This document shows positions 54,401-57,400 of a stretch of DNA of 64,000 nucleotides, one piece after another. The stretch's first letter is position 1. Every line of letters begins with the position of its first letter. The stretch is taken from NCBI RefSeq assembly GCF_057098645.1, contig NZ_CM169472.1. The stretch is one strand, 5' to 3'. Position numbers: made by a program.

Positions 54401-57400
54401 TTTCGTTGATATACGGATAGATCGTGATTTCTTCGCCAAGATAGCTGGCGGCCCCCACCCAATGCGGACCGCTGGTCTGCAGATTGATGGACATGCCGAT
54501 CATGTGACGGCTACATGGTTTGGCATCGCTTATCAGCCGCTCAAGTTCCAGATAGGTATCTTCAGTGATGCCCTGGTCCTGCACGCCGATATCCAGGCGA
54601 AACGTGCCCGGTGTTTCTCCGGTCTGCCACCACTCAATAATGCGGATCAGGAATCCGAACGGTTCCACCACCCGCCGCACGGCACTGGTGGTTCCTTTAT
54701 GCTGATGAATATAAAAAGCATCCTTCACTACCTGGCGTTTGACGCTTTCTGTCCAGCCCTCGTCCCAGCGATCCACAGAGAACGCCCAGGCGAGATAAGG
54801 CAGGAAGCTGACCGGACAGGTAGCCGGACTCCACAAGTCACGCAGCGGCACCTGCAGATCAGAAATCCCGCTACAGGTTTGCGCCAGTCGGCGCTCCAGT
54901 GAAGTTGAACCCGGTGGCAGCAGACTATTCATCCGTTCCTCCGTTGGTTACGCTCCACTGCGTACATGATGCCGCCTGTGTTTTGTTCAGGACCACATCC
55001 GCCAGAGGAGAAGCCAGCTCCACACGCTGCACACCCTCAACATGCAGGGCGGCAAAGATGGCGCTACGGCGAATATCCCGACCAAGACGCGTCTGACTGG
55101 CGATGTACTTCTGCAGGCTGGCTTTTGCCGCTGCCATTACCGGCTCTGCTTCCGGTCCCGGATAGAGAAAAATGGTGGCTTCCACGCGATACGGGATGAT
55201 TTCTGCGCTGCGAACCGTCAGACGGTCAGCCACCGGGCGGACGTTCTCACTGTTCAGAGCTTTTTCCACCACGTCCAGCAGGTCTTTTTCTGCAGTTCCA
55301 TCGCCTTCGCGGCTAAGGACAGTCAGCACCACCTCTGCAGGTGCCGGGCTGGTTGCACTGGCATCCGCCACCCGACCGTCGGCGCTTCGGGCATGAAATT
55401 CATAAGCTGCAGTTGGCCCCGCAACAGAAAGCCCTTCAAAGGCTGCAGGCACACGCAGGCGTAACGCTTCATCGCTTTCCATCACAGCTGCAACGGGCGG
55501 CACAGCATCATTATCAGCAGGCGTCACCGTCAGGCGTGTCACGTTGTAGTTGGCAGCGAGCTGGTCAAGATCGCCGCCCATCGCGTAAGCCACCATCACC
55601 GCCTGCGCGGCTTCGTTAATGCGCTGGCGCAGAAGCAACTCACGGTAAGCGTTCTCCTGCAACAATTTAGTGACGGGTTCAGATTCCAGTTCCAGCGTGC
55701 GGATCATGGCTTCCTGCTCATCTTTCGGATGAAACGCCACAAATTCTGCCTTGCGTTCGGCAAGCAGCGTCTCAAAGTCCGGCACATCCACAATCTGCGG
55801 TGCAGGCAACTGCGAAAGGTCAATCACTGCCATTCTCTGCTCCTGTTGATACGGAAAGGGACACAGGCACACCGTTATTCCGCCGCCCGGTCAGCTCCAC
55901 CACCATAGAACCGTCAAAGTTGCTGTTGATGGTGATGGAATCCAGCGTCAGCCGTGGCTCCCAGCGACTCAGCGCCACATACACTGCCGACATGACCTGC
56001 AGGCGTAATGCCGGATTTTGTGGCTGATCTATCAGTGCCGACAGTAGGGAACCATATTCCCGACGGGCAATGCGGCTACCCTGCGGCGTCAGCAGAATGT
56101 CCCGCACCGACTGGCGCAGATGGTCAATATCAGTAATGACTTTGCCGCTGGTATTGTTCATCCCGCTATAAAGCGTCATACCGGGCCTCCGGTTGTGTCG
56201 CCGCCTTTCAGGACGCCAGTATGCTGATGTGCATCAACCACAATTCCGTTAGAACTCATTGCACCGCCGCCCTGGGTAACGCCACCATTGATCACCACTT
56301 CGCTGTTAATGCGCGTGCGGTCAGCCTCCAGTACAAACTCATTGGTTTTCATGGTGATGTTGTCAGCGGCCTCAATGACCATTGATTTGATGCCCCTGAC
56401 ATACCAGCGCCCGGTGGCGGGTTCGTATTCAAACCAGCCACCGTCAGGATGTTCTGTCACGCAGGCGTCCGCCGACGTCGACGGTGGCGCGAACTGATTC
56501 GAATAGATGGCGGGCAGCGCAAACGCGGTTTCCAGATTGCCTCCCAGACTCAGCAGCACCACCTGCTCACCTTCCGATGGTTTCCACCATGTGCAGGCAT
56601 TACCCGCGCGCAGCGTCAGCCAGTTAATCCAGTTGGTTTCAAGGTCGCCCGTTTTCACCCGACAAAGCCAGTTTTCCCGGTCCACTTCGGTGACTACACC
56701 TGTGCGGATCAGATTGGTGATAAGGCGCATGATTTCGGTTAATTGTGCGTTCATAGGGAAAGGTTGCCATCAGGGGAAGAAAGGCGGCAGTGCTGCAACT
56801 TGTATCAGTGCTGATACAAAGATCACCCCGCCAGCCATTGCAGAATCATGTCGCGGGTCATTGCCTCAACATCATCATTTACACCCAGCAGGCGGCGCTC
56901 TGCGTAACGAACCTCCGGTCCTTTGCGACTGACGCGATCACGCAGGCCGTAATGGTGAACACGGGCAATACGCTGCACCTTGCCTTCAAACTGTACGCTG
57001 GCAGAGTCGGCGCTGGCGGCAGTTTTCAGGTATTTTGTGGTGCGCAGCTTTGCAAACATCTGACGTTTGATGCGCCCCTTCTTGCTGCGTGCTGTTACCC
57101 TGCGCGGTTCATAACTGCTGCCATCTGGATTGCGCTGCATCCTGATATTCTGCTGCTGTGTCCGGCGCAGTTCCTGCGCCAGCTGGCGCATCATACGGCT
57201 TCTTGCGGCTGGCTCCAGATTCGCCAGCAAGGCACTCAGCCAGTCGTCCACCTTCTGCAATTCAGCCACGTTTCACCGTCCACATTTCTTCAGGTTTATC
57301 GGGTTCCGCTACAGCTTCAACACTCGACACACTGCCGTCAGTACTGACCAGCACACGCTCCGTCAGTTGCAGGTTAAGGCTGATATCACAGACATCGTTG

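Follow-up and report, generated by a model that had tools for sequence, protein, structure and literature searches.

A palindrome between genes S and V as the predicted Ogr-type operator of a prophage V late promoter in Escherichia coli

Introduction

The late region of a P2-family, Fels-2/186-like Escherichia coli prophage spans 43.4-64 kb of the window, i.e., the whole 64,000-nucleotide stretch of DNA that was analysed, and reads from the minus strand. From the stop codon of gene S to the ATG of gene V, a gap of 68 bp is occupied by a palindrome, and the RefSeq annotation of this junction carries no regulatory feature. The question is what the palindrome does there, and whether it belongs to the gene that ends before it or to the gene that begins after it. 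Judging from sequence, position and conservation, the 20-bp palindrome very probably serves the V late promoter of the prophage, equivalent to PV of phage P2, as operator and is a predicted site for an Ogr-type activator. The features concerned are listed in Table 1.

Table 1. Coordinates of the features of the V late promoter and of the related late-region elements, as positions in the window.
Feature	Position	Strand	Basis or remark
Gene V (baseplate spike/assembly protein V)	56176..56754	-	PHROG match and alignment to P2, 186 and Fels-2
V start codon ATG; predicted transcript start at the A, 56754	56752..56754	-	P2 record annotation and spacing
-10-like hexamer CAACCT	56761..56766	-	-12 to -7 from V ATG; putative role
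-35-like hexamer CTGCCG	56785..56790	-	-36 to -31 from V ATG; putative role
Predicted activator-binding dyad of the V late promoter, TTGTATCAGCACTGATACAA	56800..56819	-	centre 56809.5, 55.5 nt upstream of the A of V ATG (56754)
Gene S (tail completion protein)	56823..57269	-	PHROG match and alignment to P2, 186 and Fels-2
Ogr/B/Delta-family C4 zinc-finger activator gene, 72 aa	43413..43631	-	Pfam PF04606, E 5e-22, 78 bits
PF sister dyad, TTGTGTGAATAACGACACAA	50635..50654	-	upstream of tail sheath gene FI
PO/PP sister dyad, TTGTACCGACAACCACACAA on the + strand	62696..62715	.	common to both divergent promoters

Genomic Context of the Gap

The upstream O operon ends with S, whose stop codon is 3 nt away from the 20-nt dyad. 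On the other side, the dyad lies immediately upstream of V, which heads the V-W-J-I-H-G block, all on one strand, and whose N-terminal Met-Asn (MN) is conserved with P2 and 186 in the alignment. The preliminary description had placed the element between S and V, as PV is in P2, and this is correct: the dyad falls inside the gap, with both genes identified by PHROG and alignment. A 401-bp query around the junction was found at 100% identity in E. coli HS (NC_009800, 936111-936511) and in further strains; among 5,426 complete genomes, 539 match at least 80% of the query.

The prophage also encodes a candidate activator. The 72-aa protein of the Ogr/B/Delta family shares 51% identity with P2 Ogr and 54% with 186 B, including the four Cys, and it is the presumed binder of the V dyad. 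No tRNA was found at the prophage end near ogr (40000-44000).

Sequence and Position of the Dyad

On the + strand, TGTATCAGTGCTGATACA (56801-56818) is an exact match to TGT-N12-ACA, as first described, and the core motif extends to TTGT-N12-ACAA at this site. The perfect inverted arms, initially given as 8 bp, are in fact one base longer: TTGTATCAG (56800-56808) and CTGATACAA (56811-56819) are 9 nt each, 100% complementary and separated by a 2-nt spacer.

Such a palindrome might be a functionless product of chance, and its frequency in the window is compatible with this. The bare TGT-N12-ACA motif occurs 18 times against 15.5 expected; it is not enriched and, because it is found at chance level, was dismissed as stand-alone evidence. 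Perfect inverted repeats whose arms measure 9 nt or more and whose spacers do not exceed 4 nt are found at four places in the 64 kb, compared with ~1.4 in simulated sequence. The longer TTGT-N12-ACAA has four matches (1.18 expected), three of which lie in late-promoter gaps, namely those of PV, PF and PO/PP. The sequence of the dyad is by itself within chance; its position is beyond chance. Moreover, when PV, PF, PO and PP are aligned on their dyads, all four have a -10-like hexamer at offsets 53-58: at the offset of the PV hexamer, CAACAT is found in PF, CAACCA in PO and TAGGTT in PP.

Conservation Upstream of V

The upstream region of V was compared in 80 IMG/VR loci with a V identity of 96% or more. 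In this sample, V is preceded by about 16 unrelated contexts, most of them with cargo genes between S and V, and each carries exactly one TGT-N12-ACA that starts at -63 to -66, mostly at -64. The fate of the S end in the cargo-bearing loci was followed in three annotated phages, Cartapus, RE-2010 and SEN8, as the 1.2-kb flanks of the IMG/VR loci are too short for most of them. In all three, a reverse-strand gene lies between S and V, and the dyad is still found at its V offset. Since the upstream contexts are unrelated and the dyad keeps a fixed distance to V, the element moves with V and not with S. The same constancy is seen in the 186-like clade, for which 68 distinct upstream sequences were compared: TGT is at -64 in 57 of them and within -70 to -60 in 68/68, with a background of 0-4 at other offsets.

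Across 30 distinct S-V gaps, the columns TTGT, CA and ACA are invariant. A base-frequency matrix built from 34 distinct PV dyads gives TTGTRYCA-N4-TGRYACAA, which the window site fits at 16/16 specified positions. By this fit, the long palindrome is a pair of arms that each follow the clade's 8-bp half-site consensus, and no separate device. Mean symmetry differs between cargo-less gaps (6.8 of 9 positions) and cargo-bearing gaps (5.4 of 9); the half-site model alone does not account for the higher value, for which shared descent may be responsible. With an offset that holds throughout the relatives and upstream contexts examined, and with these invariant columns, a chance palindrome is effectively ruled out by the conservation data and is scarcely credible as an explanation of the gap.

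Core Promoter and Transcript Start

A scan of 56500-57100 found no canonical sigma-70 promoter, just the pair CTGCCG and CAACCT, and this is the expectation for an activator-dependent promoter. CAACCT is a poor match to TATAAT. Both putative elements have conserved counterparts: CTGCC does not vary in 30 distinct cargo-less S-V gaps, the 186-like loci have TTGCCG at the same offset as CTGCCG of the window, and of the 68 distinct upstream sequences from the 186-like clade, 54 have CATCCT or CATTCT at -12 to -7.

The preliminary description had called the spacing to the V start codon tight and had for this reason treated the exact role of the element as inferred. This concern can be set aside: the 55.5 nt from the dyad centre to the V ATG are equal to the site-to-start distance of P2 pV and to the family norm. 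From TTGT to the transcript start, the annotated P2 and 186 promoters have 65-68 nt, and 65 nt separate TTGT from the A of the V ATG in the window. This value is at the short end of the range, and a start 1-3 nt further downstream would remove the start codon.

Because the geometry of the window is that of P2, in which the PV start is annotated on the first base of V, the V mRNA is probably leaderless, starting on or next to the A of its ATG. Its 5' end would thus be expected at the edge of the S-V gap, at ~56754, rather than within the gap. Among 70 distinct upstream sequences, just two have a Shine-Dalgarno (SD)-like motif ahead of V; ATG is the start codon in all 70. Gene V of P2 is a classic case of a leaderless mRNA. 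A literature search on leaderless transcripts and P2 gene V returned nothing relevant.

The dyad could also be the operator of another protein, or part of a promoter with an upstream start and a leader from which V is translated conventionally. The hexamers are weak, which makes the start point uncertain, and binding of the activator is a prediction. However, TTGT-N12-ACAA is found in the same register in the other late-promoter gaps, the spacing of the dyad is that of the annotated activator site of P2, and 68 of the 70 distinct upstream sequences lack an SD-like motif. Furthermore, the dyad-to-ATG distance is constant over unrelated sequences, a constancy that a leader of arbitrary length would not need. 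Together, these points make a different operator or a leader-bearing message very improbable.

The Ogr-type late promoter proposed in the preliminary description is supported by the dyad and its place before V, the activator gene in the same prophage, the register common to PF and PO/PP, the lack of a sigma-70 promoter and the fixed offset. The mechanism that we infer from binding through activation to the exact start point and leaderless translation is as follows. Late in lytic growth, the activator (43413-43631) would bind the inverted half-sites TTGTATCA and TGATACAA. Centred ~55 bp upstream of the start, it would recruit the host sigma-70 RNA polymerase via the alpha C-terminal domain, as established for P2 Ogr; the unaided core promoter, with its -35-like CTGCCG and -10-like CAACCT, would be too weak to fire. 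Transcription starting at the A (56754) of the V start codon, or next to it, would yield a leaderless V-W-J-I-H-G mRNA, whose first gene is translated without an SD. The P2 promoters PP, PO, PV and PF have TGT-N12-ACA in common and depend on Ogr (PMC3931495), and the rpoA109 mutation L290H in the alpha C-terminal domain is suppressed by ogr mutations (PMC11434276).

RNA Structure of the Gap

A palindrome directly behind a gene may also act in the RNA. In transcripts running from PO through S, the dyad could fold into a stem-loop, either ending the O-operon message or stabilising its 3' end, alone or besides binding the activator. The hairpin would start 3 nt past the S stop codon, and P2 has a putative terminator directly after S. 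The minimum-free-energy fold of the gap places a 9-pair hairpin atop a longer stem, in which the 3' end of S (GGCUGGCGG) pairs with CUGCCGCC and behind which UUUCUU is found. The greater symmetry of the cargo-less gaps points in the same direction, as do the paired changes between window-type and Fels-2-type dyads, which keep the symmetry (ATCA/TGAT, GCCA/TGGC, GTCA/TGAC).

On the other side, the A/T-rich stem has GUUGCAGC directly behind it and no U-tract, and a terminator consensus scan does not report the dyad. Where cargo separates S and V, the dyad stays with V, 64 nt before it, and is parted from S. The fold energy of the gap is ordinary (z -1.14), with 29 of 200 shuffles folding equally well, and the Rfam search gave no match. 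In RNAalifold, the outer stem is lost and the covariation term is -0.46; several of its pairs are broken in 12-19 of 30 gap sequences. Counted as one sequence at one pair, 87.8% of the pair positions in the 30 distinct gaps are paired, compared with 87.4% in shuffled controls (92/500 shuffles reach the observed value), and double changes are seen at one pair alone (328/500 shuffles). The changes at arm positions 5-6 are transitions that fit independent R-Y half-sites, A.C mismatches included. An RNA role at the O-operon 3' end is hence quite unlikely.

Two specific candidates were rejected. A Rho-independent terminator would have a G+C-rich stem with a U-tract and would stay with the end of S in relatives, neither of which is observed, and for a conserved RNA secondary structure, the covariation in the 30 distinct gaps was not above controls, either by RNAalifold or by pair counting.

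It is conceivable, if unlikely, that the dyad is bifunctional in phages with an empty gap: as DNA it would be the PV operator, while in RNA from PO read-through, the perfect 9-bp stem would mark the O-operon 3' end or protect it. If true, the stem would stand in for both the separate terminator found behind S in P2 and the G+C-rich hairpin located between the PV -35 and -10 in the 186-like clade, and it would explain why the symmetry of the cargo-less gaps goes beyond the needs of the operator consensus. It is likelier that the V and P (terminase) messages of the clade may both begin on their start codons (in the window, at 56754 and 62761), in which case two of the four late operons would be leaderless.

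Implications

As the PV operator, the element is of a well-known kind, the expected late promoter before V in a common E. coli prophage, and its importance outside annotation is small. For specialists, the gains are modest. The operator of the clade can be described as two 8-bp half-sites, TTGTRYCA-N4-TGRYACAA, instead of the textbook TGT-N12-ACA. The operator-to-ATG distance of 64±2 nt across unrelated sequences argues for a leaderless V message throughout the family, rather than an oddity of P2. At the S-V hotspot, finally, the promoter cassette is exchanged along with the cargo genes.

Comparison with Known Systems

A known counterpart is PV of P2 (NC_001895). Its activator site (10239-10266) is centred at 10252.5, and the annotated V-operon start at 10308 is the first coding base of V, 55.5 nt away. 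As in the window, the promoter lies directly before V, the left TTGT is 65-66 nt from the V ATG, no SD is present and the right end of the late region encodes an Ogr-family activator, for which the 51% identity was given above. As -10-like element, P2 has CAATCT and the window CAACCT. The P2 site, TTGTCTGGTAGTTCTACAA, is only partly symmetric and reads as TGT-N11 or N14-ACA, in contrast to N12 in the window. Between S and PV, P2 carries orf30 and a putative terminator, whereas the window gap is empty.

In phage 186 (NC_001317), whose B protein is a homologue of the window activator (54%, see above), the O-orf32 gap is the PV equivalent. It measures 69 bp; TTGTGTGA begins 65 nt ahead of the orf32 ATG, and CATTCT occupies -13 to -8. 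The NC_001317 record annotates pV/p12 and pJ and leaves the O-orf32 gap without a promoter. At both annotated promoters, pJ and pV, the B site begins with GTTGTG, 66-67 nt ahead of the annotated transcript start. The right half-sites of 186 are ...TCCA or absent, unlike ACAA of the window. The promoter of the O-orf32 gap is presumably p32 (Portelli et al. 1998).

The closest relatives are prophages of the Fels-2, SopE-phi and PSP3 type (genus Felsduovirus and allies). They have, like the window, a 68-bp S-V gap with the same S end and core promoter (CTGATGGCAACCTTTC), and their dyad, TTGTGCCACTGCTGGCACAA, is at the same offset. The inner arm is GC instead of AT, and the arms are 8 bp long with a 4-nt spacer, compared with 9 bp and 2 nt in the window.

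Outside the P2 family, CAP at lac is the example of a class I activator, and the lambda cI message from PRM is a leaderless mRNA with AUG at its 5' end. The resemblance to class I promoters acting through the alpha C-terminal domain lies in the symmetric site, placed ahead of a weak core promoter; the proteins are unrelated, and the likeness is one of analogy alone. For Ogr, the contact with the alpha C-terminal domain has been shown genetically (PMC11434276).

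Prophage Context and the S-V Gap

From ~43.4 kb to 64 kb, the window covers the late-gene half of a Fels-2/186-type prophage of the P2 family, with 95-97% identity to the nearest phage records. The prophage sits in an E. coli chromosome, whose fliE to fliH flagellar genes are found at 20-23 kb. On the minus strand, the genes are arranged as O, N ... R, S, V, W, J, I, H, G, DNA invertase, FI, FII, E, T, U, D, ogr, with R upstream of S and W, J, I, H, and G downstream of V (Fels-2 annotation used). P is divergent from these genes, from 62761. The product of the ogr homologue shares 51% identity with P2 Ogr and 54% with 186 B, and the four zinc-binding cysteines of these late activators are kept.

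The prophage apparently ends just past this gene, where an A/T-rich stretch follows the stop codon (43300-43412). As no tRNA or tmRNA gene was found between 40000 and 44000, the attachment site on this side is not a tRNA gene. The serine DNA invertase (Pfam Resolvase + HTH_7; 50702-51268, minus strand) is adjoined by the ORFs 51296-51790 and 51793-52236, on the strand opposite to H and G. The product of the second is similar to the tail-fibre assembly protein encoded at 52208-52813, and the stretch 50702-52236, with G on one side and the PF promoter on the other, resembles an invertible host-range segment.

The dyad was described as lying between S and V, which is borne out: positions 56755-56822 are exactly the S-V gap (68 bp), reading TGA-TCT-TTGTATCAGCACTGATACAA-GTTGCAGCA-CTGCCG-CCTTTCTTCCCCTGATGG-CAACCT-TTCCCT-ATG in the sense of transcription. 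The motif TGTATCAGTGCTGATACA was indeed recovered at 56801-56818 on the plus strand. The preliminary description gave its arms as 8 bp, one base too short: the repeat finder returned a sole inverted repeat in 56600-57000, with perfectly complementary arms of 9 nt, TTGTATCAG (56800-56808) and CTGATACAA (56811-56819), around a 2-nt spacer.

Coordinates of the genes and dyads discussed, with the -10-like hexamers of the promoters
Feature	Position	Strand	Motif or domain	-10-like hexamer
S, tail completion	56823-57269	minus		
V, baseplate spike	56176-56754	minus		
ogr homologue, 72 aa	43413-43631	minus	Pfam Ogr_Delta, E 5e-22	
PV dyad, S-V gap	56800-56819		TTGT-N12-ACAA	CAACCT
PF dyad, invertase-FI gap	50635-50654		TTGT-N12-ACAA	CAACAT
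PO/PP dyad, O-P gap	62696-62715		TTGT-N12-ACAA	PO, CAACCA; PP, TAGGTT

Placement of the Motif

The four P2 late promoters PP, PO, PV, and PF have TGT-N12-ACA in common and require Ogr (PMC3931495). This motif occurs 18 times in the window vs. 15.5 expected, and palindromes with 9-nt arms are present in four places vs. ~1.4 in simulated sequence. By itself, the motif is no more than chance, but its placement is. The longer form TTGT-N12-ACAA is found four times vs. 1.18 expected (3 of 100 shuffles reach four), and three of the four fall in the three gaps matching the late-promoter positions of P2. With the dyads aligned, offset 53-58 is occupied by a -10-like hexamer in all four promoters; the PF and PO/PP dyads have in common only TTGTRY ... 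RYACAA.

The fourth match, TTGTTTCCGACGCGCAACAA (25666-25685), is located in the host chromosome, outside the prophage, and is most likely a chance match. The start codon of P is overlapped by an additional TGT-N12-ACA, TGTGCCATGAACACCACA (62755-62772). Close relatives retain this match and others have lost it (TTTGGGCCATGAACACGACA), so it is probably incidental to the coding sequence.

Conservation in Relatives

The sample with near-identical V comprised 80 IMG/VR loci (V protein at least 96% identical) with ~16 unrelated upstream contexts, most of which carry extra genes between S and V, like orf30 in P2. Each context contains a single TGT-N12-ACA, whose start relative to the V ATG ranges from -63 to -66, with -64 the most common. 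The S-V interval of phages Cartapus, RE-2010, and SEN8 is taken up by a reverse-strand gene; here too, the dyad is remote from S, at 64-65 nt before V. As its offset from V is kept across contexts, away from S, the dyad goes with V and not with the S end. Among 68 distinct 186-like upstream sequences, TGT lies at -64 in 57, and all 68 have it between -70 and -60 (any other offset, 0-4 occurrences), and CATCCT or CATTCT occupies -12 to -7 in 54. In place of ACAA, this clade has ACAAAAC or ATAAAAC as its right half-site, a difference that co-evolution of operator and activator would predict.

The S-V junction is a hotspot for inserted cargo genes: ~16 different sequences are seen among loci with at least 96% identical V (L006-L074, L084-L086). 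The cargo is typically a reverse-strand gene, comparable to P2 orf30, and in SEN8 encodes an FRG-domain protein. The whole sequence as far as the V ATG, -10 region included, is replaced along with it, but the dyad offset is retained; the window carries the empty form. The junction region is 100% identical in E. coli HS and further strains; of 5,426 complete genomes, 539 have a match to at least 80% of it.

The Extended Palindrome

The consensus of 34 distinct PV dyads is T-T-G-T-R-Y-C-A-N4-T-G-R-Y-A-C-A-A. The window dyad agrees at 16/16 specified positions; none of the others is symmetric at 9/9 arm positions, as it is. Such symmetry could also mean that the dyad works as a terminator or RNA hairpin, as its sole or an additional role: the predicted RNA forms a 9-bp hairpin atop a longer stem built from the S 3' end, with UUUCUU after it. 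Cargo-less gaps are also more symmetric (mean 6.8/9) than cargo-bearing ones (5.4/9), which would be better explained by an RNA function, although the cargo-less gaps are related by descent and the comparison is therefore not an independent test. However, the fold of the gap is not unusual (z -1.14), the hairpin has no U-tract after it and was not reported by the terminator scan, and RNAalifold retains the dyad helix only, with a covariation term of -0.46. Over 30 gaps, 87.8% of pair positions are paired vs. 87.4% in shuffles (92/500), double changes are seen in one pair only (328/500 shuffles), and outer-stem pairs are disrupted in up to 19 sequences. Rfam gave no match, and the dyad is separated from S wherever cargo intervenes. 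Together, these results make a role in RNA quite improbable.

In the 30 distinct cargo-less gaps, TTGT, CA, and ACA are invariant, while arm positions 5-6 are AT/AT in the window, GC/GC in Fels-2, or GT/AC, with G.U and A.C combinations occurring too. Because these positions vary by transitions only, the paired differences are readable as an independent R-Y rule in each arm. From these comparisons, we conclude that the long symmetry reflects a consensus-like operator, not a separate device; this PV operator probably has a high affinity. The specialist gains an 8-bp half-site consensus and an operator-to-ATG distance that is fixed family-wide.

In the 186-like PV, the interval from the -35-like to the -10-like element holds another inverted repeat, TGCCGCYGG-N6-CCRGCGGCA (9-bp arms, G+C-rich), located 42 to 8 nt ahead of the V ATG (loci L110-L166, alignment A5). 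It is 92.7% paired vs. 88.8% in shuffles (0/500) and shows 14 further pair types vs. 10.1 (1/500); on the V-sense strand, one-sided changes are U.G with few exceptions. Two roles are conceivable for this repeat: a second DNA operator, or an RNA hairpin that shields V from read-through originating upstream. Of this repeat, the window retains only TGCC ... GGCA (56763-56787).

Promoter Geometry Compared with P2 and 186

Motif placement, the conserved offset before V, the activator gene, and the sister dyads uphold the original reading of an Ogr-type late promoter; on this sequence evidence, the dyad is supported as a P2-type late promoter element for V, belonging to a well-known kind. The activator encoded at 43413-43631 would bind 56800-56819 and bring sigma-70 polymerase to CTGCCG/CAACCT. 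In P2, ogr mutations suppress rpoA109 (L290H), which affects the alpha C-terminal domain (PMC11434276). Transcription would start at the first purine past the pyrimidine run TTCCCT, the A of the V ATG, and V would be translated from a leaderless message. Of 70 distinct Fels-2-like upstream sequences, only 2 have an SD-like motif ahead of the V ATG, and the N-terminus Met-Asn is common to V of the window, P2, and 186.

A probable second case lies at 62696-62763 (plus strand), where the P (terminase) ATG at 62761 and the TTGT of the shared PO/PP dyad are spaced by exactly 65 nt, with TAGGTT at -12 to -7, an in-frame TAG 12 nt upstream, and no Shine-Dalgarno sequence. The spacing is kept in 22 distinct Fels-2-like relatives (L173-L284), with TAGGTT or TATGTT. 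P of P2 and 186, on the contrary, has a 23-nt leader with GAGG; hence, the PP message is probably also leaderless in the Fels-2-like clade.

In the P2 RefSeq record, positions 10239-10266 are labelled "activator binding site; activation of pV promoter". The "transcription start site for V operon" is put at 10308, where the V coding sequence also begins. This coincidence looks deliberate, since the remaining three P2 transcript starts differ from their gene starts. From site centre to start, the distance is 55.5 nt in P2, as it is from the dyad centre (56809.5) to the A of the V ATG (56754) in the window. Measured from the first T of TTGT, the annotated starts lie at 65 nt (P2 pO), 66 (P2 pV), 66-68 (P2 pF), 66 (186 pV), and 67 (186 pJ), and the A of the V ATG in the window at 65 nt. 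The window spacing implies a V transcript predicted to begin on the start codon or within 1-2 bases of it. The distance to V is indeed short, but the concern raised by its tightness falls away, as it matches the usual geometry of P2 and 186.
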